Virus record (IMG/VR): IMGVR_UViG_3300044655_003531
Coordinates: 1-64,000 of that record
DNA length: 64,000 bases
Reading direction: 5' to 3' (one strand)
DNA from: a virus
Lineage: Duplodnaviria > Heunggongvirae > Uroviricota > Caudoviricetes
Shown one piece after another: positions 4,441 through 63,933 of the stretch. Made by a program: the position numbers and the translations under genes. The notes beneath the pieces were generated by a model. That model saw only the letters and a program-made list of their open reading frames with translations, was not told where the DNA came from and did not search any database. Position 1 is the first letter of the stretch. The number at the start of each line of letters is the position of its first letter.

Positions 4441-4444
4441 ATAT

Positions 4445-4765: not shown

Positions 4766-5221
4766 TTAAGATAACTGGAGTAAAATTCTATCTTCTTTTT
4801 TAAAACATTCCCCATTTATTATCATATCGCCACTTTCATTTTTTTCAGTTTCAACGGTACAATAAATCCATCTGAGTTGTTGAAGGTGAGATACAACGCT
4901 AGATATTTTACACCATTTAGGTTTAAACATATCACTTGCCGTGTCGATATCATCTAACAACTTAAACATAAATTCAAGTTTATGTGTTAATGTTGCAATA
5001 TTAATACCTCTACGTTGTGATAAATCAATAGCATAAGTGTCTTCAGTCATTTTAACTAATTCATCATCAACAGAGTGAGCTTCTTTTGCTTTGTTATAGC
5101 AATACTTCACATAATTTTTATTACCTTCTATCCCTTCATACCCTTCGAGAATATCTTCAATTGATGATAACACATCTCTTAATTTGTTTGCTGAATATAG
5201 CATTTTGTGTTTGTCGTTCAT
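4766..5221 (-). CDS. hypothetical protein (151 aa)
   Basis: ORF in array. Confidence 0.45.
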   Translation of the reverse strand: MNDKHKMLYSANKLRDVLSSIEDILEGYEGIEGNKNYVKYCYNKAKEAHSVDDELVKMTEDTYAIDLSQRRGINIATLTHKLEFMFKLLDDIDTASDMFKPKWCKISSVVSHLQQLRWIYCTVETEKNESGDMIINGECFKKEDRILLQLS

Positions 5222-6293: not shown

Positions 6294-6349
6294 TGAGTTT
6301 AATTTTGGTTTTCAAAATAGGTAGTCTTGTGTGTGAATTAGTTTGTGTG

Positions 6350-6622
6350 TCATAACAAGTTTTTTAAAGTATATTCAATAGCTGCTTCATATGCTTCTGT
6401 TGGTGAATCATAGTGTGTGTCTGTAGGTTTAAATTCAGCATTCCTCTTCTCTTTCAAATTAAAATGCTCAAAATACCAAGACCCCATAATGTTCACATTC
6501 ACTACAGTCCAAATCCCATGCTTCTCATACAACCACATTACTACGTCTGATATAGTTGACAATAATACTCCATGTTTTTTAAACAGAATTTCAGCAATTT
6601 CAAATTTTACTGGTGTGTTCAT
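6350..6622 (-). CDS. member of tandem paralog family (short form, MNTPV...PTEAYEAAIEYTLKNLL)
   Basis: Shares N-terminus MNTPVxFEIA and a 60-aa C-terminal block VVMWLYEKHGIW...PTEAYEAAIEYTL with 6619..7053, 7050..7436 and 9615..9980. Confidence 0.6.
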   Translation of the reverse strand: MNTPVKFEIAEILFKKHGVLLSTISDVVMWLYEKHGIWTVVNVNIMGSWYFEHFNLKEKRNAEFKPTDTHYDSPTEAYEAAIEYTLKNLL

Positions 6623-7053
6623 ATTAAATTATTTAGCGTGTACTCAATAGCTGCTTCGTATGCTTCTGTTGGTGTTTTGAAATTTTCTCCTGATGTAAAC
6701 TCTTTTTTATCAGTATCAATAGACCAATAAAATTCTTTTTGGTCTATCCTATGTGCATAAATCCAAATCCCATGTTTCTCATACAACCACATCACAACTT
6801 CTGCAATGGTTGGTGCTGAGTAGTAGATTGCATTATCATCATTCGGGTATGGAATTTTTTTTAAAAGCATACCTGATTTACCACCATTCAAGTTCCAATC
6901 CCAAATACAATCTTTATCGGATTCATATTCTGTACCTGTTGTTAAATAAAATTCTTTATCGTACTTACTTTTGCGATAAAAGTGACGACATTCCCAAGAA
7001 AATCCTTTTTCTTTTAGGAGTTTTGCAATTTCAAAATTTACTTCAGTGTTCAT
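6619..7053 (-). CDS. member of tandem paralog family (MNTEVNFEIAKLLKEKGF...)
   Basis: Conserved termini with a variable middle. ATGA-type overlap with neighbours. Confidence 0.6.
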   Translation of the reverse strand: MNTEVNFEIAKLLKEKGFSWECRHFYRKSKYDKEFYLTTGTEYESDKDCIWDWNLNGGKSGMLLKKIPYPNDDNAIYYSAPTIAEVVMWLYEKHGIWIYAHRIDQKEFYWSIDTDKKEFTSGENFKTPTEAYEAAIEYTLNNLI

Positions 7054-7436
7054 ATTAAATTATTTAGCGTGTATTCAATAGCCGCTTCGTGTGCTTCTGT
7101 TGGTGAATTATAGTGTGTATCTGTAGGTTTAAATTCAGCATTCCTTTTCTTTTTCAAATCAAAATGTTCAAAATACCAAGACCCCATAATGTTCACATTC
7201 ACTACAGTCCAAATCCCATGTTTCTCATACAACCACATCACAACTTCTGCAATGGTTGGTGCTGAGTAATATCCAGCATTTCTTTTATGCATAGATGTAT
7301 CTCCAATAGTATGATTATTCCAATCTCCAAGTTCAAAAGTATAAAGATTTAAAGATGAATAATAACTCCAACATGGTATATCAAACCCTTTCTCTTTTAG
7401 CAACTTTGCTATCTCAAAACTTACTGGCGTGTTCAT
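7050..7436 (-). CDS. member of tandem paralog family (MNTPVSFEIAKLLKEKGF...)
   Basis: C-terminal 60 aa nearly identical to 6350..6622. N-terminal 18 aa identical to 9615..9980. Confidence 0.6.
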   Translation of the reverse strand: MNTPVSFEIAKLLKEKGFDIPCWSYYSSLNLYTFELGDWNNHTIGDTSMHKRNAGYYSAPTIAEVVMWLYEKHGIWTVVNVNIMGSWYFEHFDLKKKRNAEFKPTDTHYNSPTEAHEAAIEYTLNNLI

Positions 7437-7788
7437 TGGTTAGTGCTTTAATTAGTGCATCCGCTTTCATTACTTTAATTTTTGCCTCTACAAGCATCCA
7501 CCATTTCATTCTTTCTAAATCAGGAGAACGCGGAATATCTGAATCCATTAACGGCCTAACCGTGTCATAGGTATAATCATCCACCGGCATAATAGAAGCA
7601 AAGTACTCGCGCTTGGTTAATTTGCCATGAATAAAATCGTCTGGGTGTGTTTCGTTATTGCTCATAGTGGGCAATTCAATAGGGGTTACATACTCGTCAA
7701 TGTATTGCATGATGTGTTTTGCGTCTATCATTGACACCTCGCATTTTTCAGCGGCAGTTAAAAACATCTCTTTTGTGTATAGTTTCAT
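7414..7788 (-). CDS. hypothetical protein (124 aa), MKLYTKE N-terminus
   Basis: ORF. Shares its 5' nucleotide sequence ATGAAACTATACACAAAAGA with 7812..8144 and the 12.7 kb gene. Confidence 0.5.
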   Translation of the reverse strand: MKLYTKEMFLTAAEKCEVSMIDAKHIMQYIDEYVTPIELPTMSNNETHPDDFIHGKLTKREYFASIMPVDDYTYDTVRPLMDSDIPRSPDLERMKWWMLVEAKIKVMKADALIKALTNEHASKF

Positions 7789-7811
7789 AGTTTGGTTTGG
7801 TTTAGGTTGGG

Positions 7812-8144
7812 TTACACGATTCTACCCTTAATCGCACCTGCATAATGTTTGACAAATTTTTCGACTTCAACTTTTAATTCGTCAAGAGTATCGGTTTTAA
7901 ACTCTTTCCTCAAAATTTCATCATCAAGGAAATACACTTGGACTGTTCCTTCCCAAAAATTACCAATGTTTTTATGTGGTGGATAAAACCTGCTGCTAAT
8001 TGACAGCAAGGAGCCATCAAAGTCCAATTTAAATCCACAGTCCCATTTCCATTTTGGTTCATTGTGTATTTCCTTTTTTTCGTTTGCTTTGGCTTCCCAG
8101 AGCATTGCAAAATCCCAATCCAATTCTTTTGTGTATAGTTTCAT
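7812..8144 (-). CDS. hypothetical protein (110 aa), MKLYTKE N-terminus
   Basis: ORF with conserved 5' end. Preceded by the CCAACCTAAACCAAAC spacer. Confidence 0.5.
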   Translation of the reverse strand: MKLYTKELDWDFAMLWEAKANEKKEIHNEPKWKWDCGFKLDFDGSLLSISSRFYPPHKNIGNFWEGTVQVYFLDDEILRKEFKTDTLDELKVEVEKFVKHYAGAIKGRIV

Positions 8145-8157
8145 AGGTTAGTTTGGT

Positions 8158-8418
8158 TTAGGTTGGCATGTAATCTTCAAAGTCCTTTTTTGCTTTTTCC
8201 ATTTTTTCTTTCAATCGGTTTTTTTCATCCACGATAATTGCAGACGCTTGCTCTCTTGAGATTTTAAATTCATAAATTTTCGTTCCATGGTTATAAAGCG
8301 TAATTTGAGGAGTAGTGTATTGTTGGTTTACTCCTGCAGCAAAGGATTCGTAATCAGCGACAGCCCTGTTGAGCTTATCCATAAGCTCTCTTGCGTGGTT
8401 TAATTGATGGTGATTCAT
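8158..8418 (-). CDS. hypothetical protein (86 aa)
   Basis: ORF. Start preceded by the TAAACCAAACTAAACC spacer. Confidence 0.45.
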   Translation of the reverse strand: MNHHQLNHARELMDKLNRAVADYESFAAGVNQQYTTPQITLYNHGTKIYEFKISREQASAIIVDEKNRLKEKMEKAKKDFEDYMPT

Positions 8419-8431
8419 GGTTTAGTTTGGT

Positions 8432-9190
8432 TTAGTAAATGTATTTCCCTACCCATTGGGTATGACCTTCGGGGGTTGTTGTTTCCTTATGTACTTTTTT
8501 CAAAGGACAGGTAGGTATTTCTTTTCTGATAGATTCATATTGAGACTCATCAAACTTAACCCAACCGGCTTCTGTGCCATAATAATATTCACTTGACATA
8601 TAAAAATATTGTATCTCACATTCAAACGCAGTAGGTAATTCGGGTTGTGATAAAGATTCAACATAATTATCAAACCACTTAGTATATTTTGAAATAGCTT
8701 GAATCATATCCCACGCCGTAACATCTCCTGTTGGAAGTAGAGTAACTAAATTGTTTCTAATTGTAAGCATATCCTCATTGGTGTACTTGTACTTCTCTTT
8801 GGCTTTGTTGTGGCCATTTATAAAGCCAGCCTTTAAGTAACCAGGGTAATTAAAAAATTCGTTTGGATCATCATCACATGATTGACTCTGCTCGCTGTAT
8901 TCTCTTTCCGCTAACTCTTCAACTTCATCTTCAAGCGGTGGTAGCAAGTCCACGCCTTCAAGGATTGGCGAGTCATTGAGTGGTAGATGAGCAATTATTT
9001 TTCTGCAATAATCCATGTGTATTTGAGAGCTCTTATCAAATAAAAATTGTTCATTATAATAATCAGTTACTTGACGAATATCTAATACCTCTAATTCGGT
9101 ACAATTTACAAGCACCGTATCACCTGTACAAATTTCTGAATCATCAACCACCAATAGGTAGTCTTTCGTGTGAATTAGTTTGTGTGTCAT
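8432..9190 (-). CDS. hypothetical protein (252 aa), MTHKLIHTKDY N-terminus
   Basis: Long ORF. Its first ~35 nt are duplicated as a truncated remnant at 6320..6353. Confidence 0.5.
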   Translation of the reverse strand: MTHKLIHTKDYLLVVDDSEICTGDTVLVNCTELEVLDIRQVTDYYNEQFLFDKSSQIHMDYCRKIIAHLPLNDSPILEGVDLLPPLEDEVEELAEREYSEQSQSCDDDPNEFFNYPGYLKAGFINGHNKAKEKYKYTNEDMLTIRNNLVTLLPTGDVTAWDMIQAISKYTKWFDNYVESLSQPELPTAFECEIQYFYMSSEYYYGTEAGWVKFDESQYESIRKEIPTCPLKKVHKETTTPEGHTQWVGKYIY

Positions 9191-9618
9191 TGGTTTTGTT
9201 TTACAATTTCAATTAACTTCCTAAGACAAGCAAGTTCTGCTTCTTCGTAAGTTTTTCTTTTGCCTGTTTCATCTATAATGTAATCCCAAGATATCACTAC
9301 TGGATATTCATCAACTGATTCAATGTATATTTCTTTGGGTATACCAATAACATAAGATGCTCTAAAAATCGTACCCCTAATATGGATATCATAACCACAC
9401 TTCTCTCTAAACCATCTAAAAGCTTGTGAGAATGTTGGTGCTGTAACTTTACCCTTTGGGTGGTTAGAGTTTTTATAAAATTGACTACAGGAATGAGTAT
9501 ATGTTGGTACTTTAGCATACTCGGTTTCCCAACTACCAAAACAAGGTTCATCAAATCCAAGTTCTTTAAGTACTAATGCTTCTTCGTAGGGTACAAATTC
9601 TTTTTCTAAGGTGTTCAT
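9187..9618 (-). CDS. divergent member of the MNT... paralog family (143 aa)
   Basis: MNTLEKEFVPYEEALVLKELGFDEPC start and ...RKLIEIVKQNQ end resemble the family termini. Central FRWFREKCGYDIHI resembles the MWLYEKHGIWI block. Confidence 0.45.
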   Translation of the reverse strand: MNTLEKEFVPYEEALVLKELGFDEPCFGSWETEYAKVPTYTHSCSQFYKNSNHPKGKVTAPTFSQAFRWFREKCGYDIHIRGTIFRASYVIGIPKEIYIESVDEYPVVISWDYIIDETGKRKTYEEAELACLRKLIEIVKQNQ

Positions 9619-9980
9619 AACAAGTTTTTTAAAGTGTATTCAATAGCTGCTTCGTAAGCTTCTGTTGGTGAATTAAATGGATTGATATTGAGTTGTACTA
9701 TTGAATTTGTTGATCTGGATTTTTGACTTTGGATTGTAAATTGAAATTTTGAAACATTACCTAAATGTGAATACAATCCTCCATTAATCCAAATCCCATG
9801 CTTCTCATACAACCACATCACTACTTCTACAATGGTTGGTGCTGGATAATTATTACCTCTATGATTTTCAGTCAATTCTCTTGTGTCTGGGAAATAAAAT
9901 TTTTGATTATCGCCAAAATCTAATTTATATCCCTTTTCTTTTAGCAACTTTGCTATCTCAAAACTTACTGGCGTGTTCAT
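9615..9980 (-). CDS. member of tandem paralog family (MNTPVSFEIAKLLKEKGY...PTEAYEAAIEYTLKNLL)
   Basis: Termini conserved. About 45 nt at the 5' end identical to 7050..7436. Confidence 0.6.
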   Translation of the reverse strand: MNTPVSFEIAKLLKEKGYKLDFGDNQKFYFPDTRELTENHRGNNYPAPTIVEVVMWLYEKHGIWINGGLYSHLGNVSKFQFTIQSQKSRSTNSIVQLNINPFNSPTEAYEAAIEYTLKNLL

Positions 9981-10204
9981 TTTATATTTGTTAATGGATA
10001 AGCGTTTAAAACGGCCTCTTCAACTTCATCATAAGTTGCAATATCAGTACTAGAACCTAAACAGGGTATACTTTCAAGAGAAGCTTTTAAAGCGGCTTCA
10101 ACATGAAGTTTGGCAAATTCAATCATTGCTGTTTTAACATCTTTATGATTGATAATACAACCTGTTACTTTAGTGTATGTTTCTTCTGCTGTTGGTATTT
10201 TCAT
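9977..10204 (-). CDS. hypothetical protein (75 aa)
   Basis: ORF in array. Start preceded by the TTTAACACCAAATAAAA element. Confidence 0.45.
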   Translation of the reverse strand: MKIPTAEETYTKVTGCIINHKDVKTAMIEFAKLHVEAALKASLESIPCLGSSTDIATYDEVEEAVLNAYPLTNIK

Positions 10205-16167: not shown

Positions 16168-16485
16168 TTACATATTTTTAATTTCTTTTTCTACCTCCAC
16201 CCAGAATGTTGTTTTGGGATGGTTTGCCCAATAACAGGTTTCCGATTCTTCGTCATCATCTTTCATAAACTGGAATATTTCACCAACAACAGCAAGAGCT
16301 GATTCTTTCCATTTTGGATTTGAATAGAAACTTTTGTATTCACCGGTTGTTACTTCATAAACTTTATTAGTTGAAAATCCAACCGACCCGACTATTTGAA
16401 GTGCCTTTTCTTTTGGTGTAATTGTGATTGGTTTGTATTTAGACATAGAATTTTTTTGAGTTAAAGAGCTTATTTTCAAGCTCAC
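16168..16485 (-). CDS. hypothetical protein (105 aa)
   Basis: ORF. Confidence 0.4.
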   Translation of the reverse strand: MSLKISSLTQKNSMSKYKPITITPKEKALQIVGSVGFSTNKVYEVTTGEYKSFYSNPKWKESALAVVGEIFQFMKDDDEESETCYWANHPKTTFWVEVEKEIKNM

Positions 16486-16865
16486 AGAACAATTTCGAAT
16501 CTTTCCTTCATTTGGAGGATTCTTTCGTCAGGTACTCCGTGGACATTCTTTCCCCCGTGTCTGTTTTCAACAATCAATGAAAAAACGGTGAATCCGTATT
16601 TTTCTGCAAGTTCATAATAGGCCGACATTTCCCATTTTCTGGTGAAAGTGTTGGACACGACTACCTTATCTTCTCCTCTACTCATAGCAGTTTCTGCAGT
16701 TTTTTTGCACCACTCGTGAGCTTCTTTGAGCAGAAGAGGATCAAATTTATATTCGTTGTCTTTCATGAAGAACATATCAGCCTCGACGTGAGAACCCCCG
16801 ATTGCTTTGGCTAGGGTGGATTTTCCAGCCCCTGGGCAGCCTCTTAATAAAAATAAAGATTTCAT
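16482..16865 (-). CDS. pnk: polynucleotide 5'-kinase, stand-alone homolog of the T4 Pnk kinase domain
   Basis: LLRGCPGAGKSTLA P-loop aligns with T4 Pnk ILTIGCPGSGKSTWA. ELAEKYGFTVFSLIV aligns with ETFAKEYGWKVEHKVF. VPDERILQMKERF aligns with VPIDVLRSMYKSM. Confidence 0.75.
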   Translation of the reverse strand: MKSLFLLRGCPGAGKSTLAKAIGGSHVEADMFFMKDNEYKFDPLLLKEAHEWCKKTAETAMSRGEDKVVVSNTFTRKWEMSAYYELAEKYGFTVFSLIVENRHGGKNVHGVPDERILQMKERFEIVL

Positions 16866-16883: not shown

Positions 16884-17339
16884 TTAGAATGCTCCGTAGT
16901 TAACTTGAAAACAGGCAATACCTTGGTCCCTCCACATTTTTACTACTTTATCTCTATCATCATAAACGCACATTATTTCATTTCCCTCCGAGATAAATTT
17001 ATCCATCCATGCCTTCTTCAAGACCTCGTCCGGGGTGTAATCGTGATGTGATCTCATTTGGAGGAAATCAGGCACGATCCCTTGATCACCCAACCACTGC
17101 TCGGTTTCTTTTCTGGAAATCTCATCTCTCCCCGAGAAAATCCCTACCTTTAATCCTGCCTGCTTTAAAAACTGAAAAGTTCGGATAACTGGTAAATTGG
17201 GCTCATCCAATTGGATGTTCTCAGGAGCAAAAAATTCTTTCCAGTTCAATTTGCCAGTTGGCAGAGTAGCCTTGGATCTTCTTTTTTCGATCAGAGCCAG
17301 GGTTCCATCCAGATCGAAAATAACCGATAATTTTTTCAT
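16884..17339 (-). CDS. pnk: polynucleotide 3'-phosphatase, stand-alone homolog of the T4 Pnk HAD phosphatase domain
   Basis: VIFDLDGTLA matches T4 VIFDVDGTLA. GIFSGRDEISRKE matches VVVSGRESGTKE. YDDRDKVVKMWRDQGIACFQVNYGAF matches [26 protein letters not shown]. Encoded upstream of the kinase gene, so the domain order is permuted relative to T4. Confidence 0.85.
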   Translation of the reverse strand: MKKLSVIFDLDGTLALIEKRRSKATLPTGKLNWKEFFAPENIQLDEPNLPVIRTFQFLKQAGLKVGIFSGRDEISRKETEQWLGDQGIVPDFLQMRSHHDYTPDEVLKKAWMDKFISEGNEIMCVYDDRDKVVKMWRDQGIACFQVNYGAF

Positions 17340-19556: not shown

Positions 19557-20627
19557 CTATTCGTTTTTAAGTAAAAATCTGTTGCTGATGACCTTGAAAG
19601 AAATAGTTGTGTCCATGCTGCGAATGACCAATCCTTCCCTCTCGGCATTGGGGTTGAGAACAGATTTCCCTTCAGTCTGCTGTAAGAGTTCTTCGATGGT
19701 GTCTGGTAGAAGAAACTCAGTCCCGAGAATCGGTACGGTCTCAAATCCTAAGTCTTCCATAAGGGAGATAAAAGATCTGAGGTTGAATCTTTCCTGTTTA
19801 TCAATGTCAAAAGCATTGTAGAAACGAACGGTATGACCTTTGAGCTTGTAAGGATTCTTCTGAATTCCTTCCCCGATCAATTCACCCTGAATGCAAAGGT
19901 TAAGACCAGTATCCAGTAGCTTCTTCTTGATGTCCATTTCACGGGCCACTTTCCAGAAAGTGTTTTCCCGCTTAGGCCGTTCGATCCCATCATCGCACAG
20001 TTCCGTTCCTGACACAAATTCACCTGGTTCTGCCAACTCGAGATTTCTAGAGCAAACCCCAAATTCACCGTCTTTGACATAAAATGATGCGGAACTGCCG
20101 TCCAACTTTTCGGTTGCATAGAACTGGTGTTTACTGGTGATCTTCCATTCTTCGTATTCTCTAGACAAATTTTGGACCCTTTCCTCATCGGTTCGGCGGA
20201 GAAAAGAAGGAAAGTAGCCTTTTACTTTGCCAGCCAGTTCGGCGGGAATGGGTGGTTCGTATTTAATCACCCCAAGAATTTCGGTTACATCCATGCCAAG
20301 ATATACATTTCCCCTAACGGGAAGCACATTCAGGGGCATGAGCAATCCCTGGGATAATTCTCCTTTCAAACGGATGGTCTTGAGTCTAAATCCCTCGACA
20401 TCTCCCATTTTCTTGAAAGATGATTTTCGGAGAAACTCAAATTCATCCCGGACCGGAAGAAAAGAATCAATCTCAAAATAAACACAGGTATCTCCAGGTT
20501 TAAACTCTCCTTTCTTGGTTACCACCTGCCACCCATCAACAACAGCCAATTCGATGGCGTCTGCTCCTTTGATGGACTTGATCTCCTTGACCAATCTGAT
20601 GGAAGCTAATTTTCTGGTTTGTTCCAT
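19557..20627 (-). CDS. ATP-dependent RNA ligase-family nucleotidyltransferase (Rnl5/DraRnl-like, N-terminal OB-like domain)
   Basis: Motif I lysine in ATEKLDGSSASFY at about residue 170, preceded by an N-terminal domain as in DraRnl/NgrRnl. EGLVIRSMD resembles motif IV. Immediately upstream of the methyltransferase and the split pnk. Confidence 0.6.
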   Translation of the reverse strand: MEQTRKLASIRLVKEIKSIKGADAIELAVVDGWQVVTKKGEFKPGDTCVYFEIDSFLPVRDEFEFLRKSSFKKMGDVEGFRLKTIRLKGELSQGLLMPLNVLPVRGNVYLGMDVTEILGVIKYEPPIPAELAGKVKGYFPSFLRRTDEERVQNLSREYEEWKITSKHQFYATEKLDGSSASFYVKDGEFGVCSRNLELAEPGEFVSGTELCDDGIERPKRENTFWKVAREMDIKKKLLDTGLNLCIQGELIGEGIQKNPYKLKGHTVRFYNAFDIDKQERFNLRSFISLMEDLGFETVPILGTEFLLPDTIEELLQQTEGKSVLNPNAEREGLVIRSMDTTISFKVISNRFLLKNE

Positions 20628-20910: not shown

Positions 20911-21360
20911 CTAAACGCTATGCGGGATGTTAACTCGAACACAGGATTGAGACTGTCCCTCATTCATCAAAAAATTGTTGATGTATCCCATGATGTTAGC
21001 AGAGCCAATTGGATTGGCCGAATGGGTGTAAACTAAGGGGAAAATAATGCCCGATGATTTTTTCCCTACCCTGCCCTCGAGGGTGTCGTATTTATTCAGG
21101 TAGTAATCGACCAACCATTTTGCACAGTCCATCTCAGTCTTTTCAAGGATGTTTGAGTAGTTGAGCTCGTAATTAGGTTTAACATTGTTGAAATATTCCT
21201 CCATGACAGTATCACCCAGATCGTGGTCCAGTGAAATGATCTCAATGTTTTCTAATCCTATATCAGTGACAACTTTTACAAACTGCTCGTAATTTCGAAC
21301 AACTATCCAGTTTTCATCGTTTGGGGTTCGAATATCATCTAAGTAAATTCTTTTTTTCAT
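20911..21360 (-). CDS. hypothetical protein, paralog A of a duplicated family (149 aa); REC-like acidic motif pattern
   Basis: About 75% aa identity with 25260..25709. Conserved YLDDxRTP, ISLDHDLG, HSANPIGSANIM. Lies immediately downstream of the tRNA gene. Confidence 0.55.
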   Translation of the reverse strand: MKKRIYLDDIRTPNDENWIVVRNYEQFVKVVTDIGLENIEIISLDHDLGDTVMEEYFNNVKPNYELNYSNILEKTEMDCAKWLVDYYLNKYDTLEGRVGKKSSGIIFPLVYTHSANPIGSANIMGYINNFLMNEGQSQSCVRVNIPHSV

Positions 21361-21390: not shown

Positions 21391-21521
21391 TAGTCAGGAC
21401 AGGATTCGAACCTGTACGTGGGTTGAGTCCTTTGAGAATAACACCTTTCGGTCTCTTGAGTCTCTCCTGCAACATCCCCCACAGCTTTAGCTTACTTGCT
21501 TCTACCATTCCGCCACCTGAC
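21391..21521 (-). tRNA. atypical long tRNA gene (about 131 nt); canonical acceptor, Leu-like D arm and T arm; anticodon not assigned
   Basis: Minus-strand read AGTCAGG-TG-GCGGAATGGTAGA...ACAGGTTCGAATCCTGT-CCTGACT-A. 7-bp acceptor stem, GGTTCGAATCC T-loop, D-arm close to bacterial tRNA-Leu (GGCGGAATTGGTAGAC). About 45 nt more than a type II tRNA, so it contains an intron-like or extended insertion. Confidence 0.55.
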
Positions 21522-21602
21522 TATAATTCACCTGCCTTTTATCTCCTCATATATTCCGCCCAAAATTATTATTATAATTATAAGTAAAAACGTCTGCATA
21601 TT

Positions 21603-25259: not shown

Positions 25260-25709
25260 TCAAACAAAGTGTGGAATGTTCACACGAACACAAGATTGAG
25301 GTTGACCCTCATTCATCCAAAAATTATTAATGTATCCCATAATGTTGGCAGATCCGATTGGATTTGCCGAATGGGTATACACTTGTGGAAAAACGATACC
25401 AGATGATTTTTTTTCTGACCTACTTTTCTGAGTAAGGTAATTGTCAAGATAGTGATTGACCAACCACTTAGCACAATCCATTCCCGTCTTTTCAAGGATG
25501 TTATTGTAATCCAATTTGTAGTTTGGACTCACGTTATTGAAATATTCATTCATCGCTGTATCACCCAAATCGTGATCCAAGGAAATTACATCTATGTTTT
25601 CTAATCCTATATTTGTTACCGCTTCCACGAACTCGTCATAATTCCTCACAACCACCCAAATATCTTCTTTGGGGGTTCTAACATCATCTAAGTAAATTTG
25701 TTTTTTCAT
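25260..25709 (-). CDS. hypothetical protein, paralog B of the duplicated family (149 aa)
   Basis: About 75% aa and 80% nt identity with 20911..21360. Confidence 0.55.
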   Translation of the reverse strand: MKKQIYLDDVRTPKEDIWVVVRNYDEFVEAVTNIGLENIDVISLDHDLGDTAMNEYFNNVSPNYKLDYNNILEKTGMDCAKWLVNHYLDNYLTQKSRSEKKSSGIVFPQVYTHSANPIGSANIMGYINNFWMNEGQPQSCVRVNIPHFV

Positions 25710-31371: not shown

Positions 31372-32448
31372 TTAAATTTTATAAAATTGGGGTTTTATTA
31401 TTTTCCAAATTAATGAGGAGTATTCCTTACGATCGTACATTTTAAATAAAAGGGAAGGATTTTTGTATTTTTTTGCTTCTTCGGCAAAACTAGCTCTCCA
31501 CTTGAAATCTTTTATGCTCTTGAGGGTGTCGAAGATAGCCAAATACTCCTTCTCTACCTCCTGGTATTGACTTATCAGCTCGTTGGCATATCCTGTCACC
31601 TTTCCATAAAACTCATCGGGGGTGTCGACAAGGATGGCTGACATGTCACCTCCGGTAGACAAGACCTCCCAGATCGAAGTGGAAGTAACATTTGTCATTA
31701 TTCTGTGCAACCTGAGATACTCCTCAAATTTAATTTTCATCCGAAAGTTACCAGGTTGAAATCTAAGAACGAAACCCTCCTTGTTAACATCGTTCTGTGC
31801 CTTCAAACTACGGTATAACTGATCGGAAAAGTTAAAATGCTGCTTTGTTTGGGTGATGTCTTTATCAGAGACACCGTTGAACTTAAAGACATCACAGGCC
31901 ATAGACCAATGTAATTCTTCTTCGTTGGTTTGTTTGTAAAAATTATTGGGGACCGCAGATAAAAATATGACTTTTTCTTCCCCGTAATTTACAACGATAC
32001 GATTTTCCGGGTAGATGATCTCAACCAAGTACGCGTATTCTTTTATCCAACTATCCAACTTGTATTTGGATTGAACCATCTCTAATCCCTTTATTGCCTG
32101 GTCTGAGGTAAAAGAACCCCGGGTAGCCATAATCCATTCACCCTCGTAGTAAAACAGTATGCCTAAAGAGCCATCCGCCTTTTCCTGCACATACACACAG
32201 TCTCCTTGGGTTGGAATTTGTCCTTTGTTCACAATTTCTTCGTAGTTGAAAAACTTTGGAAAGGGTTTAACAAGGATCCCGCCGGTAACATCATCGGTAA
32301 TAAGACCTCTACACATAAGGGTCACATCGTCCCATAATCCATCGTATTGAACCTTTTCGCTGTAGTTCCAAATTGTCAGCGGAAAGCGAGGATGGGACTG
32401 GGAGTGGAGCAGGCCCCTTTCCTTATAATCTTCTAGTACGTTTCTCAT
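31372..32448 (-). CDS. rnlA: RNA ligase 1 (T4 Rnl1 family)
   Basis: LMCRGLIT/LECRGIMF, FPKFFNYEE/MEKFFNLNE, motif I EKADGSLGILFY/KEDGSLVSTY, VEIIYPENRIVVNY/FEFVAPTNRIVLAY all align with T4 gp63. Confidence 0.8.
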   Translation of the reverse strand: MRNVLEDYKERGLLHSQSHPRFPLTIWNYSEKVQYDGLWDDVTLMCRGLITDDVTGGILVKPFPKFFNYEEIVNKGQIPTQGDCVYVQEKADGSLGILFYYEGEWIMATRGSFTSDQAIKGLEMVQSKYKLDSWIKEYAYLVEIIYPENRIVVNYGEEKVIFLSAVPNNFYKQTNEEELHWSMACDVFKFNGVSDKDITQTKQHFNFSDQLYRSLKAQNDVNKEGFVLRFQPGNFRMKIKFEEYLRLHRIMTNVTSTSIWEVLSTGGDMSAILVDTPDEFYGKVTGYANELISQYQEVEKEYLAIFDTLKSIKDFKWRASFAEEAKKYKNPSLLFKMYDRKEYSSLIWKIIKPQFYKI

Positions 32449-36486: not shown

Positions 36487-38022
36487 TTAAACTGAGGCAA
36501 CAAAAGTTATTTTCATGCCTTCGGAGGGATGAATCAGATAGGCTTGAAGAGCTCTATTGGATCCTTCAAACCCGTGTTGGTGATGCCATCTATCAGAACC
36601 AGACAGACTCGGCATTTGATAAACCTTCACCCCATTGAAGTCCTTCACCATCTCATGATGCAGGTGTCCAGTAAAGAAGAATCTGTGTTTGGTTCTGGAC
36701 CAAAAATCAGGAGCTTCTCTGGCCATAAGGTAAGGAAGCTCTGAAAGTTTGGTTCCGTCACCGTGCGTGAATCCCATGAGATTTTCACCGTATTCGTAGT
36801 ACTGACGGAATTTATGACATTTAATCACCTCTACATCTTCACAGCTCCTATAATAGGCTCCCAAATACTCCAAAAGAACATGAGAAAGTTTGAAGTCGTG
36901 ATTGCCCGCAGTTAATAAAATCTCAACGGGAGCCACCCCTCTCAGGATATCGATGAATTCTACCATCAGTTGCTGGCCCTCCACCATGATCTGGATAAAA
37001 GTACCATCGCAGTCCTGAGGTGTGCCTTTGGTCGTGGTTCCACCGAGGGTATCAACATGAAAAAAATCGGATCCTACAGGAATAATAATTTTCTCAATCT
37101 GATACTTAACAACATCGGACAAGATGGAGGCAGTTTTTCCGAGTAATAAATCCCGGGCCATTTGACGGTTGTATTCATCCCTCACCTCTCCTGACCAGGC
37201 ATATTTCCCGTAGTGCAGATCAAAGGGAGAAATAACGAGGGAATGAGGTTCTCCGGGAGGCAGGGTCAATTTAGGAACCTCGTACTGGGCAAAAACCTGG
37301 GATAATTTTTCGGCCAAAGGATTGATAACCAGACCCTTAAAAGCCCACCAATTTGAGGCTGCCTCTTTGATCATTTTTTCCTCTTGCCGGGTGTATTTCT
37401 GGAAGAATGAAAATTTTCTTTTTTGTAGAGCATCTGAAACCATCTCTTCCTCGTCTCGGACGAACATTTCTTCGTCGGTATAGGGTTCGGAGTCGTGGGT
37501 CCAGCCCAGAATAGATTTAAGGGCGGTAAATATGTTTCTAGGTATTTCGAAATTCCGACAGATTTCGTTGATGGTTTCTGCACTGCCGGTCAGAGAAGAA
37601 TAACGGGATTTCATGTCCCTAATGATGGTGCCGGTAAATCGATAGGCTTTGTTCTTGATGTACACTATATAGAGATCTTTTGCCTCATCATAGTAGTAGT
37701 TGGTGTTGTGCTTGTATTTTTTGTAGGCAGACCGGGCTATTTTTTCCTCCTCTTTGTCGATTTCTAATTCCATAGAAGGAGGAATTTCCTCCTGCCTGAA
37801 TTTTTCCTCGATCGATTGTCTTAGAACATCTTCCGGTAATTCTTCTGACAGCTTGGCAGAGATTGCTCTTCTAAAAGAATCAATGGCCGAAGTGCCCAGA
37901 TTTAGAAATTTTTCGGAAACCAATTTTTTGGCTATCTCAGTATGAGAAAAACCTTGACCGTGTAAAGACCAGATTTCCTCTGAGAATTTTTCGGCTAGGT
38001 CCTTGAGTGAAATTTGACTCAT
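36487..38022 (-). CDS. two-domain protein with C-terminal calcineurin-like metallophosphoesterase domain
   Basis: SDFFHVDTLGG, LTAGNHDF, GFTHGDG, FFFTGHLHHE in MPE order. N-terminal ~250 aa unknown. Confidence 0.55.
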   Translation of the reverse strand: MSQISLKDLAEKFSEEIWSLHGQGFSHTEIAKKLVSEKFLNLGTSAIDSFRRAISAKLSEELPEDVLRQSIEEKFRQEEIPPSMELEIDKEEEKIARSAYKKYKHNTNYYYDEAKDLYIVYIKNKAYRFTGTIIRDMKSRYSSLTGSAETINEICRNFEIPRNIFTALKSILGWTHDSEPYTDEEMFVRDEEEMVSDALQKRKFSFFQKYTRQEEKMIKEAASNWWAFKGLVINPLAEKLSQVFAQYEVPKLTLPPGEPHSLVISPFDLHYGKYAWSGEVRDEYNRQMARDLLLGKTASILSDVVKYQIEKIIIPVGSDFFHVDTLGGTTTKGTPQDCDGTFIQIMVEGQQLMVEFIDILRGVAPVEILLTAGNHDFKLSHVLLEYLGAYYRSCEDVEVIKCHKFRQYYEYGENLMGFTHGDGTKLSELPYLMAREAPDFWSRTKHRFFFTGHLHHEMVKDFNGVKVYQMPSLSGSDRWHHQHGFEGSNRALQAYLIHPSEGMKITFVASV

Positions 38023-54763: not shown

Positions 54764-54796
54764 TTTCAAAAAAAAGTTTGTCTTACGACAAACTTT
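54764..54796 (-). terminator. rho-independent terminator immediately 3' of tmRNA
   Basis: 10-bp perfect stem AAAGTTTGTC/GACAAACTTT with loop TTAC, followed by an 8-nt T-run on the transcribed strand. Confidence 0.75.
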
Positions 54797-55246
54797 TGGT
54801 GGAGCTGGGCGGATTCGAACCGCCGTCCTGCTAGGTAATTCCATGAAACTCGTTCACAGGCTTAGTCCATTTTTCTAAACAGACAAATCTTTACCTCCTA
54901 GTTTTTGACTGTGATAGGAGATAATCCACATCATCGATCCCTACAGCGATCTGAAGGGTATTGGACCGGAGCCCGCAGGGTTACTGAGGATCGACGGATT
55001 GTGTGGTACTGTTAACCCTTTTTCCCACCCTCGTGACTTTCTGTTCCTGGGTGTCACCCCCCGAGGTTTAGGCTGCCAAGGCAACTTCAACCGGCTCCGC
55101 TGAACCTAGTCCAGCCAAAGCAAAAAATGGATTTTCGCCATTTAAGAAGTACTTAGGATATTTAGGTGCTTCCAAAGCTAGCACCGCCTGCATCATGTCA
55201 AAGAACTTATGCCTCCAGTCGATTCCTTTCAGCCCCATTTTTTATA
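54797..55246 (-). ncRNA. ssrA: tmRNA (ssrA), about 450 nt
   Basis: 5' GGGGCTGAAAGGAATCGAC matches E. coli GGGGCUGAUUCUGGAUUCGAC. 3' GGACGGCGGTTCGAATCCGCCCAGCTCCACCA matches GGACGCGGGUUCAACUCCCGCCAGCUCCACCA. Internal tag frame ...GENPFF...AEPVEVALAA-TAA ends with the canonical ALAA stop. Confidence 0.8.
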
Positions 55247-55340
55247 TATTTCATCATTCTAAAAAACCCCGAATTTTTCTCTGAGATGGAACGGAACCGT
55301 TTACGAGAATGAATATATAGTGCAAATGTAAAAAAAATTT

Positions 55341-57806
55341 ATGAAAAGAATATCCAAGAATTACAAAAAATTAAGATTATTCGAATCTGAGGAAGAACTA
55401 AAAGTCCCAGATGATGAAAAGCTTTGGCAAGCATACGGTGAGGATATGACCAAAGCAGCGAAGGAGGGAGAGATAAATGAAGTAATTGGAAGGGATAAGG
55501 AATTGGAACAGTTGCTTCGCATTCTGGCCAGGAAAACCAAGGATAATCCAGTTTTGGTTGGAGAGCCGGGCGTTGGAAAAACCGCTATTGTGGATAAGCT
55601 TGCTCTTTTAATGGCAAGCGATAAATGTCCCGGTTTTTTAAAGGGGAAAAAGTTAATAGATTTGACCTGGGCATTTAAAAAAATAGTTAATGGAGGTTAT
55701 TTACCCCTTTTGGCCCGTGAAATTGAGGAAGATAACTTGATTATTTTTGTGGACGAACTCCATTCTCTACCTAAAGCAAGTTACGATGAACTCAAACCCT
55801 TTTTGGCTAAAGCCAAACTTCATATGATCGGTGGTTCCACTTATAGTGAATATGGTCAAACTATTGAGAAAGACGGAGCCATGGAAAGAAGATTTCAACC
55901 GATCAAAGTTGAAGAGCCTACCTACGAGGAATGCATGGAAATACTTAGAGAAATCCAAGAAAAATATGGGGATTGGCATCATGTTAATTATTCACCAGAA
56001 GCCTTAGAATCCTTTTATAAACTATCTAAGCAGTATATTAAAGACCGATTTTTGCCAGATAAAGCTATCGACTTGATGGACGAATCCGGTGCACGAATTC
56101 GCATTAAAAATGCCCCGGATGCGGAGGTTGCGAATCTAGAAAAGAAAAATTTAGAACTCCTAGACCGGATCAGGCAAAAGACGGCAGAAGGTGACTATGA
56201 TGCTGCTGCAGATCTATCAGATGAAAAAGAAAAGATAGAGAGTCGGCTTGAAAAAATGGCTGCGAAAGGTCAAATGGGACCTAAAATTACCGTCACTAAA
56301 GAAATGGTGGAAAAACTAGTGGCAGATAAAACAGGGATTCCTGTTGAAACGATGAAAAAGGGCAGTAAGGCAATCCTAAAAGGAATGTCAAGCAGACTGA
56401 AATCAAAAGTTATCGGTCAAGACGAGGCGGTAGAGACCGTTGTTAGAACAATTAAAAGAAACAGGTCGGGTCTTAAAGACCCTAATAGACCTGAAGGGGT
56501 ATTTTTATTCGTGGGCCCTACTGGGACAGGTAAAACCTATTTGGTGAAAAAATTGGCTGAGGAGCTTTTTGGATCTAGGGAATCTAAATTGATTAGGATT
56601 GATATGAATGAATATTCGGAGGCTCATACAGGATCTAAATTGTTTGGATCACCTCCCGGTTATGTAGGTTATTCGGAAGGAGGCAAACTAACAGAGCAAG
56701 TCAGAAGAAACCCTTATTCGGTAATTTTGCTAGATGAGATCGAAAAAGCAAACCCTCAAGTTATACAATCCCTGCTAGGGGTGCTAGAAGATGGAAGGAT
56801 GACGGACGGGCAAGGGAGAACGGTTGACTTTACAAACTGTGTTATTATCATGACTTCTAATGTGGGATCAAAAACAGGATCTAAAAAGGTTAAATCAAAG
56901 GAACCCAGAAAAGCGATTGGTTTTTTGGTTAAAGATGAACCAGAAGATGAAACAAAACAGACTGGAGCAGAATCACCTGAGGAAATCAAAGCAAGAGTCG
57001 ATGCAGCGATCAAAAAAGAGTTTTCGCCCGAATTTATTAATAGAATAGATGATATTGTTATTTTTCAGTCAATAGACCAAGAATCAATAAAAAAGATTGC
57101 AGAAAAAGAGCTCGAGAAGGTGGCAGATAGGATTAAAAATACCCAAGACATTAATCTGACTTGGGGAACTTCGGTTTACAAGTTGTTACTTAAACACGGA
57201 TTTGACCCTGAATATGGGGCTAGACCCCTTAGAAGAGCAGTGGAGAAATATATCAAGGACCCTCTAGCCAATTTTATAATCGAGGAAGAGATTGAGGAAG
57301 GATCCAACCTCAAAATTGATTACGATTCCTTGGCAGATGAGTTAGTCATTAACGGAAAGAAAATTTCAGAGTTATCTGAATCTAGACTCAGAAAAATCCA
57401 CAAAAGTTTTTCTTTGTTCGAATCTACAAGTCCTAGAAGAATCAATAGTTTTTCAGAATTTAGCGATAGATTAGACGAGGCGGAAACAGAAAGGGAGAAA
57501 GAAGAGGAAAAGGGAAAACCAGCTCCTTTGCCTAAACCACTGCCTAAACCACTGCCTAAACCTACGCCTAAACCACAGCCTAAGCCTACTCCTAAACCTA
57601 CACCCAGTGAGGATGAAGATGAGGATGAGGATTTTGATCCAGATGCAGAACCGGTCCGAAGAATAACTCCTCATCCGTCAATTGCACCACGAATTAAAGT
57701 TCCTTCTCATGCTCCTGGACCCCAAGCAATAAAGAAAAAAGCTTCAGAGATGGATGTGATCAAAAGGTACATATCAGAACTCAAAAAAAGAAAACCATTT
57801 TACTAA
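55341..57806 (+). CDS. ClpA/ClpB-family AAA+ ATPase lacking the N-domain, with C-terminal PKP-repeat and acidic extension
   Basis: NBD1 VLVGEPGVGKTAIV, NBD2 FLFVGPTGTGKTYL plus DEIEKA Walker B and sensor blocks. C-terminal PLPKPLPKPLPKPTPKPQPKPTPKPTP followed by SEDEDEDEDFDPD. Confidence 0.75.
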   Translation: MKRISKNYKKLRLFESEEELKVPDDEKLWQAYGEDMTKAAKEGEINEVIGRDKELEQLLRILARKTKDNPVLVGEPGVGKTAIVDKLALLMASDKCPGFLKGKKLIDLTWAFKKIVNGGYLPLLAREIEEDNLIIFVDELHSLPKASYDELKPFLAKAKLHMIGGSTYSEYGQTIEKDGAMERRFQPIKVEEPTYEECMEILREIQEKYGDWHHVNYSPEALESFYKLSKQYIKDRFLPDKAIDLMDESGARIRIKNAPDAEVANLEKKNLELLDRIRQKTAEGDYDAAADLSDEKEKIESRLEKMAAKGQMGPKITVTKEMVEKLVADKTGIPVETMKKGSKAILKGMSSRLKSKVIGQDEAVETVVRTIKRNRSGLKDPNRPEGVFLFVGPTGTGKTYLVKKLAEELFGSRESKLIRIDMNEYSEAHTGSKLFGSPPGYVGYSEGGKLTEQVRRNPYSVILLDEIEKANPQVIQSLLGVLEDGRMTDGQGRTVDFTNCVIIMTSNVGSKTGSKKVKSKEPRKAIGFLVKDEPEDETKQTGAESPEEIKARVDAAIKKEFSPEFINRIDDIVIFQSIDQESIKKIAEKELEKVADRIKNTQDINLTWGTSVYKLLLKHGFDPEYGARPLRRAVEKYIKDPLANFIIEEEIEEGSNLKIDYDSLADELVINGKKISELSESRLRKIHKSFSLFESTSPRRINSFSEFSDRLDEAETEREKEEEKGKPAPLPKPLPKPLPKPTPKPQPKPTPKPTPSEDEDEDEDFDPDAEPVRRITPHPSIAPRIKVPSHAPGPQAIKKKASEMDVIKRYISELKKRKPFY

Positions 57807-59999: not shown

Positions 60000-60300
60000 T
60001 TAATTTTTGATAGAGGTCGAGGTTTTTTAAGCCCGTAGCTCTTTCTACTTCTTGACCGTCTTTGATGAGCAGTACGGTCGGGAGAGATCTAACCCCAAAT
60101 TCAATGGCAGTTTCTCTGTTCTCGTCTACGTTGATTTTGTGGATGACTAGGTCTGGATTTTTGGTCTTGATTTGGTCCAGAATAGGATGGAGCATTCTAC
60201 AAGGGCCGCACCATTCAGCCCAAAAATCGAGCAGGGTTAATTCAGTAAAATCTTCGGAAGTAATAGTTGATAAGTTCATATAATTTATTTTAGTAAACAA
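59983..60300 (-). CDS. trx: thioredoxin
   Basis: WAEWCGPC active site, size about 105 aa. Confidence 0.85.
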   Translation of the reverse strand: MFTKINYMNLSTITSEDFTELTLLDFWAEWCGPCRMLHPILDQIKTKNPDLVIHKINVDENRETAIEFGVRSLPTVLLIKDGQEVERATGLKNLDLYQKLIDTHS

Positions 60301-60646
60301 TTGTTTGGGTCATATCGGGATTGGTCCGGTAGATAATTTCAGGACCCGGGGACATAATAACTGACATACCATCAGACAGAGTTTGAAGACTCTGAATGAA
60401 ATTCTGAACGTCTTCTTTTTTAGAAGAGGGAAAGTTAAAGTGGGTCATCACATCTTTAACTAATTCATCTAAAGAAGATTCAAAATCTCCCGTGTCATGA
60501 AAATTCATGTATTTTTCGTATTTTTTAACGAAATCTTTGATTTCTTCCTGTTGGACTTCACTGAGAGACAGATTTGAAACAAAATCGTCGAATTCTAGAA
60601 TTTTTTTCTTATACATAGTGAGATATATATCTGAATTAAAAACCAA
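60290..60646 (-). CDS. hypothetical protein (118 aa)
   Basis: ORF. Confidence 0.4.
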   Translation of the reverse strand: MVFNSDIYLTMYKKKILEFDDFVSNLSLSEVQQEEIKDFVKKYEKYMNFHDTGDFESSLDELVKDVMTHFNFPSSKKEDVQNFIQSLQTLSDGMSVIMSPGPEIIYRTNPDMTQTIVY

Positions 60647-60651: not shown

Positions 60652-61146
60652 ATGCAAACTTCTTTAGCAGAAAAAGACAAAGATTTTTACCTTCAGGATT
60701 CAACTTCGGAATTTGAAATAGAAGAAGCTGAAGTGGAAATTTCTCCCGAAGAAATAGAAGATCCTTCTGAAGAACCAGAAGATCTGGGTACAATCGATTT
60801 CCAAATTTCATCAGATGAGGAAGAGGATCCGGATGAAAGAGAAGAAGACAAAGGGGAAGAGGACGAAGAGGAGAGCGACGAAGAAGAAGAGGTCCAGAGT
60901 ATAGAATATAGCGAAGTCGATGACGAGGATGATGATGAAGATGATGAAGATGATGAAGATGATGATGAAGATGAAACAGATTACGAAGAAGAGGAAATGC
61001 TAACTGAACCTTTTCTCGGAGATGAAGATTCCGAAGAAGAGGACGAAGAAGAGGACGAAGAAGATGAAGAGGACGAAGAATCTTCATCGGATGAAAGAAC
61101 CCCAATCCTAAGTTTCAAAGATTTTATTAAAAAAACTAGGAAATAA
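60652..61146 (+). CDS. hyper-acidic D/E-rich protein (164 aa)
   Basis: Over 55% Asp+Glu with long DEDD runs. The antisense ORF 60650..61105 is a low-complexity mirror and judged less likely. Confidence 0.45.
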   Translation: MQTSLAEKDKDFYLQDSTSEFEIEEAEVEISPEEIEDPSEEPEDLGTIDFQISSDEEEDPDEREEDKGEEDEEESDEEEEVQSIEYSEVDDEDDDEDDEDDEDDDEDETDYEEEEMLTEPFLGDEDSEEEDEEEDEEDEEDEESSSDERTPILSFKDFIKKTRK

Positions 61147-63306: not shown

Positions 63307-63933
63307 TTAAAAAAGAGTGTTGATCATGAAAAGATTTGGACTGATTGGGTGAAAGCCCATTACTTCGATAAATCTGTTAATAGGATCTAGAATTGTTTTG
63401 GTGAACTGTTCGTCGTAGTTGACTGGGGGTGCGTATTCATAGGGAAAATTACCCTGGGAATAGGCAAAGACGTTGTTCTCTGCCTCGGATCTAACCGGCA
63501 CGAAATAAAATCTGACTTTATCTCCAGATCTCAGAAGAGGATATTTCTCTTTGTACTTGGAGTTGTTTAGCAGAAAATTATGGAAAGCGGAGGCTCTAAC
63601 GTGAATCGGACAGGACTTGCTCACCTCGAGTTTTGTCGTGTCATTCAGGATGAATTTTTCGTAGTTGTTAACCGATATTGCGAGAGAGATCTGCTCGGCT
63701 TCTTGGGCCTTGAAATCTTTTTTAATGCTCTTTAACTCCTGAACAAATTCTCTAAGGTTGAAGTTTTTACCCACAGACAGAATATACTTCGTCAAATAAA
63801 GAAGTTTTTCTCTGACAAAAGTGGGGGTTCCTCCCTTGATCATTTCTACCCCTGTTGTTTTAATAAAAGTCAGAGGATCCGAGTGTATCCCGTCGGCATA
63901 GACTTGATTGGTGACATATTTTTTCTTACCCAA
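63307..63933 (-). CDS. hypothetical protein (208 aa)
   Basis: ORF. Confidence 0.45.
   Translation of the reverse strand: MGKKKYVTNQVYADGIHSDPLTFIKTTGVEMIKGGTPTFVREKLLYLTKYILSVGKNFNLREFVQELKSIKKDFKAQEAEQISLAISVNNYEKFILNDTTKLEVSKSCPIHVRASAFHNFLLNNSKYKEKYPLLRSGDKVRFYFVPVRSEAENNVFAYSQGNFPYEYAPPVNYDEQFTKTILDPINRFIEVMGFHPISPNLFMINTLF

Follow-up and report, generated by a model that had tools for sequence, protein, structure and literature searches.

A transfer-messenger RNA gene with a predicted long tag reading frame in a large phage

Results

A complete tmRNA gene followed by a terminator

The virus record IMGVR_UViG_3300044655_003531 (IMG/VR; Caudoviricetes) contains a gene (ssrA) for a transfer-messenger RNA (tmRNA) within the stretch that we analysed, positions 1 to 64,000, referred to here in its entirety as the window. 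An initial annotation, drawn from the letters and their open reading frames (ORFs), had proposed a full tmRNA with a possibly long tag and a terminator of its own at 54764–55246. That interval does enclose a one-piece gene of 440 nucleotides (nt) together with its terminator; the strand, on which the annotation was silent, is the minus strand (Table 1). With Rfam cmscan the match to RF00023 ran from 55236 to 54797 and covered the full model (positions 1–374) at 72.1 bits (E 4.3e-26) against a gathering score of 47 bits, so that the covariance-model check proposed at the outset was passed. ARAGORN at default settings reported no tmRNA gene in the whole 64-kb window, whereas at -ps80 it recovered the gene with exactly the tag that had been claimed, GENPFFALAGLGSAEPVEVALAA*; lowered thresholds also gave spurious overlapping calls such as VPHNPSILSN...

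The ends of the gene are as they had been described. Its 5' end is GGGGCUGA, giving an RNA that begins GGGGCUGAAAGGAAUCGAC, and its 3' end is CAGCUCCACCA, giving an RNA that finishes GGCGGUUCGAAUCCGCCCAGCUCCACCA and whose acceptor stem contains a G3.U pair. The window gene encodes the CCA, which most relatives do not. A terminator abutting the CCA had also been predicted correctly: the hairpin begins at the last A of CCA and consists of AAAAGUUUGUC-GUAA-GACAAACUUUU followed by UUUU, with 11 bp, a folding energy of -12.3 kcal/mol and a z-score of -3.1. It is retained at six related loci (L071, L073, L074, L084, L089 and L061; related loci are designated by L numbers throughout), although a simple consensus terminator scanner did not list a hairpin after the tmRNA.

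Upstream of the gene lies a ATATATAA box that is a possible promoter element; its ATATATA core is present in 11/11 close family members. More distant members have TAAATTTG or TATCTTTG in place of the AT box (L176/L178 and L177), ~12–26 nt before the mature 5' end, and these fit the Bacteroidota -7 promoter consensus TAnnTTTG. In public gene calls a 56-residue ORF is annotated over the 5' part of the tmRNA (L006 9728–9898; window ~55068–55238, minus strand), which is very likely a false protein call.

Table 1. Coordinates of the tmRNA, its parts, its neighbours and related genes
Feature	Position	Strand	Remarks
tmRNA (ssrA) gene, one-piece, 440 nt	54797–55236	-	Rfam RF00023; ARAGORN -ps80; 13 further distinct homologues
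Conserved ATATATAA box	55242–55249	-	6–13 nt upstream of mature 5' end; possible promoter element
tRNA-like domain, 5' half	55218–55236	-	acceptor strand GGGGCUG (G3.U); D-loop analogue GGAAUCGAC
Predicted pseudoknot 1 (PK1), GGUGCU/AGCACC + CUUUGGA/UCCUAAG	55152–55185	-	ends 12 nt before resume codon; Rfam alignment
Tag frame (predicted), 23 codons, GENPFFALAGLGSAEPVEVALAA	55068–55139	-	resume GGC 55139–55137; stop UAA 55070–55068; ARAGORN -ps80, Bacteroidia alignment, homologues
Helix-5-like hairpin within tag frame	55094–55121	-	loop with out-of-frame UAG (GGA CUA GGU)
Pseudoknot domain, PK2 to PK4 plus hairpins	54865–55064	-	covariation (columns in text)
T-arm, GGCGG-UUCGAAU-CCGCC	54808–54824	-	two compensatory pair swaps, L072/L077
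Intrinsic-terminator-like hairpin + U-run	54768–54796	-	directly after CCA; fold energy; kept in relatives
Predicted membrane protein, 130 aa	54307–54699	-	downstream of tmRNA; syntenic in relatives
ClpC-type double-AAA+ unfoldase, 821 aa	55341–57806	+	divergent from tmRNA; Pfam AAA_lid_9, AAA_2, ClpB_D2-small
gp47-like repair exonuclease	36487–38022		left of tmRNA
T4-type RNA ligase 1 (Rnl1)	31372–32448	-	
cREC_REC paralogues, repeat D2	20911–21360 and 25260–25709	-	
Rnl2-like ligase	19557–20627	-	PHA02142 OB domain
Split polynucleotide kinase (PNK)	16482–16865 and 16884–17339	-	AAA_33 kinase and HAD_PNKP phosphatase
tmRNA of second family, L215	3903–4297		position in L215
tmRNA of second family, L241	4488–4903		position in L241
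tmRNA of second family, L196	4477–4873		position in L196

Homologues and secondary structure

Family searches were made with nhmmer and with sequence patterns. A wobble-degenerate pattern of the tag start led in IMG/VR to one 219-kb contig (L061), a pattern of the 5' end led to 11 metagenome loci, and a looser pattern added three more divergent viral contigs (L176–L178); 9 of the 20 metagenome pattern matches proved not to be tmRNAs. Including that of the window, the family comprises 14 distinct sequences, 80–100% identical to the window tmRNA. The relatives lie on viral contigs of IMG/VR (74–219 kb) and, in the case of L077, on a metagenome contig of 202 kb. By blastn the tmRNA locus had no match among 50,697 GenBank phage records, and its exact 5' 19-mer had none in IMG/VR. 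Four public copies of the same phage are 100% identical across the locus and therefore of no use for covariation.

A secondary structure was written by hand, comprising the acceptor stem, T-arm, parts of helix 2, PK1, two hairpins (one of them helix-5-like), PK2–PK4 and a terminal hairpin. Pairs were counted on an alignment of 11 sequences (A3; 10 distinct sequences, 447 columns). Standard pairs occupied 98.8% of the cells of the written structure, compared with 37–51% in slid controls, and six pairs had changed on both sides, a number reached by 0/500 shuffles. These compensatory pairs are found in the T-arm (alignment columns 416/430 and 417/429), in stem 2 of PK2 (180/204, as G-C, G.U and A-U), in both stems of PK4 (309/325 and 319/342) and in the last hairpin (358/371). 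Together with the full-length Rfam match, they bear out the claim of a complete tmRNA.

The tRNA-like domain has a 7-bp acceptor stem with G3.U70, a T-arm, a discriminator A and (C)CA. The acceptor GGGGCUG/CAGCUCC, G3.U included, is invariant across the 11 sequences, while in L176–L178 the T-arm stems read GUGGG/CCCAC and GCGGG/CCCGC. The stems of PK1 can be drawn and fit the Rfam alignment; their pairs, which include one U.U mismatch, do not vary within the family, hence they show no covariation either way. All 12 pairs of the helix-5-like hairpin are formed in 100% of cells, and four of them vary on one side with pairing retained; by eye, L178 additionally shows U-A replaced by A-U and C-G by U-A. 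The pseudoknot domain is partly replaced in L176. For helix 2b/2c, a CAUGA/UCAUG pairing can be drawn for the window sequence, but most relatives have lost it, and no convincing model was obtained.

The tag reading frame

The initial annotation had suggested that translation resumes at the GGC after AAAT, giving a long tag that begins GEN as in Bacteroidetes and ends ALAA, and comparison with cellular tmRNAs upholds this reading. Eight Bacteroidia tmRNAs were retrieved through a 28-nt 3' end that they have in common with the phage tmRNA, and ARAGORN assigns them the tags GENNYALAA, GETNYALAA, GNNNYALAA and GENNNYALAA. The phage context CUUAAAU/GGC GAA AAU (the slash precedes the resume codon) aligns column for column with Bacteroidia resume contexts such as UAUAAAU/GGC GAA AAC, so that the phage GGC stands against the GGC called by ARAGORN; the common context is UAAAU/GGCGAAAAY, with UA at -5/-4. 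In E. coli, an upstream A sets the resume frame. From this GGC the window frame runs for 23 codons and ends ALAA-UAA (final codons GCC UUG GCA GCC UAA).

The phage frame opens GENPFFALA, and GGA CUA GGU then stands where Bacteroidia have GCU-UAA or GCU-UAG. Every family member has an out-of-frame UAG in the loop of the helix-5-like hairpin, after which the frame runs a further 14 codons to the ALAA-stop. A frame of 23 or 24 codons is intact in all 14 distinct family members. The seven distinct tag ORFs, all of 23–24 codons, have conserved ends and follow the pattern GENPFF[AVI]LAGL...EVALA(A/VA); variants include GENPFFALAGLGSAEPVEVALAA, GENPFFALAGLGSVESVEVALAA, GENPFFVLAGLGSVETAEVALAA and GENPFFILAGLVPQKEAEVALAVA. 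Between the window and L178, codon differences in frame 0 are mostly synonymous (6, with 4 non-synonymous), as opposed to 1 synonymous and 9 non-synonymous in frame +1 and 0 and 8 in frame +2. Close relatives show two non-synonymous tag changes, A14V and P16S; both are C-to-U changes that turn a G-C pair of the hairpin into G.U.

A real tmRNA with a short tag was also considered, since the most frequent tag length in tmRNAs is 10 residues (PMC11915505). Resumption at a later GCG, the alternative named in the initial annotation, would give AEPVEVALAA, which has the canonical length and form, and resumption in the +1 frame, at the GCG one base beyond the start of the GGC, would give AKIHFLLWLD, with alanine first and a stop at the UAG of the helix-5 loop, where most tmRNAs stop. 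Yet it is GGC and not GCG that aligns with the Bacteroidia resume codon and has UA at -5/-4. The later GCG lies 51 nt past PK1, in the 3' strand of a conserved stem, lacks UA at -5/-4 and is GUG or GUU in most relatives, and frame 0 keeps GENPFF.LAGL ahead of it, chiefly through synonymous changes. Conservation of the +1 peptide is poor (its end reads LLWLD, LLLLD, SFWQD or SSLRD), in line with its excess of non-synonymous differences. For these reasons the 23-residue tag starting at GGC is the best-supported reading of the alignments, and we consider either short tag quite unlikely. The frame looks like an ancestral Bacteroidia-type tag (GENxxYALAA) whose stop moved out of frame, with the extension to a second ALAA-stop apparently kept by selection.

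In its overall plan the phage RNA resembles the one-piece tmRNAs of Bacteroidia: they share the G3.U pair in the acceptor, a predicted PK1 before the resume codon, a 3' pseudoknot domain, a resume context of the form UAAAU/GGC GAA AAY and a tag with a GEN start and an ALAA-stop, and over 28 nt the T-arm and most of the 3' acceptor strand are identical to those of Bacteroidales. It differs in overall identity (46–51%), in length (440 nt versus 377–403) and in Rfam score (72 versus 140–188 bits). The D-loop analogue is GGAAUCGAC rather than GGUUUUGAC, and the tag would have 23 residues rather than 9–10, the helix-5-loop stop being out of frame and a second ALAA-stop following 14 codons on.

The tmRNA is encoded by a phage

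ssrA is a classic integration site, and the initial annotation had left open whether the window crosses a junction between phage and host. On such a reading a prophage or island would have integrated into a host chromosome at the 3' end of ssrA, and the tmRNA would be a host gene. The gene being on the minus strand, the DNA to its left (lower coordinates) lies downstream of the 3' end, in the position expected of an island; this DNA is AT-rich and phage-like directly past the tmRNA, as in ssrA islands and prophages, and the last 28 nt are identical to those of Bacteroidales tmRNAs. However, phage genes lie on both sides. To the left are, besides the RNA ligases, PNK, cREC_REC proteins and exonuclease of Table 1, HAD_SAK_2 and R2K ATP-grasp proteins, a thymidylate synthase, glycosyltransferases and a DegT aminotransferase. 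To the right are the ClpC-like ATPase, a thioredoxin, a RimK-type ATP-grasp protein and a C-terminal fragment of a family-B DNA polymerase (PolB), and public contigs with an identical locus continue past the window edge with the remainder of PolB and then a topoisomerase. Thus the genes upstream of the tmRNA, where an island reading would place host chromosomal ones, are of phage families.

Two features proposed as signs of an island, a direct repeat of the ssrA 3' end and an integrase to the left, were both looked for. The 25-nt 3' end has no second copy in the 64 kb at up to 3 mismatches, and a repeat survey likewise found none, which includes the 54.8 kb on the 3' side; no integrase family of Pfam was matched by the 37 window ORFs scanned, among them the two beside the 3' end (the scan took in part of the smaller ORFs). 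Moreover, the tmRNA is just 46–51% identical to Bacteroidia tmRNAs over its length, and its homologues are confined to viral-type contigs, on which the phage surroundings are shuffled. The same 28-mer is present in a gammaproteobacterium, and the identity therefore reflects constraint and not an attachment site. An identical locus is present on many metagenome contigs, and the ClpC-like protein was found in 39 assembly-collection blocks, four of them in the 0.2–1 Mb size class.

Because both flanks are phage, we assign the tmRNA to a jumbo or huge phage, one of the two options that the initial annotation had offered; it belongs neither to an ssrA island nor to a phage/host junction. The host reading is largely refuted, and we regard it as extremely improbable. 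The statement that no integrated island is present thus holds, although the reasons first given for it were weak and the phage genes on both sides, with no integrase and no repeat, make the better case. As to the host of the phage, Bacteroidia account for 8/9 genomes whose tRNA-like domain has the same 28 nt at its 3' end, and a member of Bacteroidota is most likely.

Clp genes near the tmRNA and SmpB in sister phages

The gene divergent from the tmRNA encodes a ClpC-like protein with both AAA+ modules, a D2-small domain and an IGF loop, and with no Clp_N. In the PDB it is best matched by B. subtilis ClpC, the match starting at ClpC residue 166, which indicates that the phage protein lacks the N-domain; its AIGF stands against the ClpC VGF in the alignment. 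The IGF/VGF loop is the site at which ClpC docks onto ClpP, and the phage protein is a candidate partner of ClpP. The tail of the ATPase consists of a Pro-rich repeat (KPLPKPLPKPTPKPQPKP...) and then an acidic run (57300–57806, plus strand).

Related loci combine these genes in several ways. In L073, L074, L080, L082, L084, L088 and L102 the order is thioredoxin, 103-residue protein, ClpP, AAA_33 kinase, tmRNA and 130-residue membrane protein; the full order is seen only in L082, L084, L088 and L102, the other three being cut short or different downstream. The 202-kb contig L077 has ClpC-like, kinase and tmRNA, and the window has ClpC-like and tmRNA with its AAA_33 kinase far away (Table 1). 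Homologues of the 130-residue protein follow the tmRNA at nine loci (L071, L072, L073, L074, L077, L082, L084, L089 and L102), and in L012 one directly neighbours the gene for the Clp ATPase, the tmRNA being absent from the space between them. A search of IMG/VR with the ClpC-like protein gave distant matches only, and Clp-ATPase relatives at 47–66% identity (L010, L012, L014 and L016) had no tmRNA in flanks of up to 10 kb.

In IMG/VR the ClpP of the relatives is part of a large clade, for which at least 596 matches were obtained, on contigs of up to 373 kb. Among the best 80 of these loci, SmpB directly follows ClpP in 9, a kinase is present in 25 and a Clp ATPase in 26; a tmRNA of the window's family is present in only 2. 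The nearest ClpP homologues in GenBank phages are from uncultured huge phages of 630–640 kb and Prevotella Lak megaphages, a further sign of Bacteroidota affinity; the huge phage LR745206 has ClpP and neither tmRNA nor SmpB within ±20 kb of it. Sister phages encode SmpB (IMG/VR matches, best 80 of 405).

Discussion

Weighing the assignment

We put at about 85% the probability that the window carries a functional tmRNA gene of a jumbo or huge phage of lytic type, whose genome probably exceeds 200 kb and whose host is most likely a member of Bacteroidota, as the comparisons of sequence and gene content above suggest. Several observations weigh against parts of this interpretation. For a tmRNA the gene scores low in Rfam (72 bits, with 140–188 for cellular Bacteroidia) and default ARAGORN rejects it. 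Helix 2 could be modelled only partly, the variation of its 3' strand showing no clear covariation. Pairs were counted on the very sequences from which the structure had been derived, and the family is shallow (80–100% identity), so the compensatory changes reflect few events. The assignment of the host is indirect, and a Thiomicrospira genome has the same 28-mer. Not every locus has Clp genes next to the tmRNA, as there are none beside it in L176 and L177 and ClpP is ~5.6 kb off in L109/L178, and no SmpB, ClpP or M28 homologue was found in the 64-kb window.

A probable role in translation damage control

The tmRNA would be transcribed as its own unit, from the AT-rich box to the intrinsic terminator. 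The RNA folds into a tRNA-like domain, in which G3.U is the alanine identity pair, a predicted PK1, a tag frame and a 3' pseudoknot domain. It would be charged with alanine and delivered with SmpB, supplied by the host or made by the phage as in its sisters, to ribosomes stalled on broken mRNAs. Translation would resume at GGC and append GENPFFALAGLGSAEPVEVALAA, so that a tagged product would end ...AGENPFFALAGLGSAEPVEVALAA, and the C-terminal ALAA would send it to Clp-type proteases of phage or host. Alanylation, the use of SmpB, tagging and degradation by Clp are here deduced from conserved features of the RNA and its neighbours. The probable role is translation damage control in infection, in which ribosomes stalled by host or phage cleavage of RNA would be recycled and truncated proteins cleared; the link to RNA damage is drawn from the dense set of RNA-repair genes and from the PNK-type kinase next to the tmRNA in relatives.

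The RNA could instead act mainly as a decoy or regulator that titrates host SmpB, EF-Tu or alanyl-tRNA synthetase, or senses stalled ribosomes. In phage DS6A only the tRNA-like domain of the tmRNA is left, and tmRNA is inhibited by a molecule resembling it (PMC4131195); the use of tmRNA state as a signal by phages has been mentioned (PMC7162821), and the D-loop analogue of the window tmRNA departs from the Bacteroidia form. However, conservation extends to the full mRNA-like domain, to PK1, to the tag frame and to the ALAA end, with substitutions of the coding type, and a pure decoy would need none of these elements; sister phages, for their part, encode SmpB themselves. We therefore hold a decoy to be very unlikely and favour trans-translation.

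A more speculative extension of the trans-translation role is that the phages possess a private quality-control circuit, made up of their own tmRNA (and SmpB in the sisters), a tag lengthened by a spacer and a second ALAA degron, and a phage ClpP with a ClpC-like unfoldase, devoid of the adaptor domain, that reads the tag. We consider this possible but doubtful. If true, the circuit would let the phage clear proteins made from cut mRNAs or tRNAs independently of host proteases. The position of the tmRNA beside phage ClpP/ClpC-like genes in a genome rich in RNA repair suggests that large phages unite ribosome rescue with targeted proteolysis.

Known phage tmRNAs and a second family

Phage tmRNAs are themselves known. 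They have been documented in the Bxz1 group and in Bacillus phage G (PMC4131195), and huge phages with tmRNA and SmpB have been described (Al-Shayeb et al. 2020; PMC7162821). Like these, the window phage is large and has its own full-length tmRNA. What is new is a family without a relative among the 50,697 GenBank phage records, its poor detectability by default ARAGORN, an apparent origin of the tag by extension in a shifted frame and the association with phage ClpP/ClpC-like genes; the Bacteroidia-type tag and tRNA-like domain also set it apart. A long tag has a phage precedent, because ARAGORN assigns the 435-nt tmRNA of mycobacteriophage Bxz1 a tag of 25 residues.

A second phage tmRNA family was found in IMG/VR contigs of freshwater huge phages (L215, L196, L240, L241, L226 and L244), with Rfam scores of 57–85 bits. 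Its tags, GNILDKMSAIGLIRAEEVVVA and GNILNKMALVGLVRQDELVNVA, have 21–22 residues and a G start. It shares with the window's family the low Rfam scores, the long G-start tags and the failure of default ARAGORN, which finds 1/6 of those tested. It differs in that nhmmer gives at most a weak match at the 3' end, in lying beside SmpB and GOLLD RNA and not Clp, and in tags that end VA. These lengths suggest that long tags are common in phage tmRNAs, which may systematically write about twice the cellular tag length (Bxz1 25, the window's family 23–24, the SmpB/GOLLD-linked family 21–22 residues).

The huge-phage survey used ARAGORN (PMC7162821). Both families score low in Rfam and are mostly invisible to default ARAGORN, and genes for trans-translation in phages are therefore probably under-counted. 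ARAGORN is also a primary finder for the tmRNA database. The window's family, for its part, offers a natural example of tag remodelling, in which an ancestral stop appears to have moved out of frame and a second ALAA degron to have been recruited and conserved.

The order tRNA, GOLLD RNA (285–320 bits) and SmpB occurs at nine loci (L215, L196, L240, L241, L226, L244, L246, L210 and L231; ~1450–4900 in each), 7/9 of which have a divergent tmRNA on the opposite strand, none being seen in L210 and L231. The shorter locus L247 has a tmRNA and no GOLLD match. To our knowledge GOLLD RNA has no known function, and the fact that it recurs next to genes for trans-translation may offer a lead. Two-piece (permuted) tmRNAs of 110–116 bits turned up incidentally through a T-arm pattern; they lie within tRNA arrays, the viral contigs being 97 and 149 kb long (L031 8124–8389 and L053 2463–2693).

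Other features of the window

The RNA-repair genes are densely set on the minus strand between 16482 and 32448, where the split PNK, the Rnl2-like ligase, the two cREC_REC proteins, HAD_SAK_2, the R2K ATP-grasp protein and Rnl1 are found. In the same region, 21391–21522 (minus strand, 132 nt) gives a weak Rfam tRNA match of 31.5 bits (gathering score 29), with good acceptor, D and T arms and an insert of 47–65 nt within or past the anticodon region; ARAGORN calls it, as a doubtful tRNA-Phe(aaa), only when run in intron mode with the threshold lowered. This could be a phage tRNA that carries an intron or is degenerate.

The family-B DNA polymerase is split into a 379-residue N-terminal and a 208-residue C-terminal part (window 63307–63933, minus strand; L006 17967–20613), and between them lies an opposite-strand ORF of 271 residues that is possibly a homing endonuclease. 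A weak match to DUF1577, which we take to be a Leptospira-specific family, on the ORF at 60290–60646 was treated as noise. The protein of 164 residues encoded at 60652–61146 (plus strand) is almost wholly made of Asp/Glu repeats (repeat D1). Finally, four paralogous small genes lie in tandem at 6316–9981 (minus strand); their repeats, D3–D6, are 62–96% identical and have common 5' and 3' ends.

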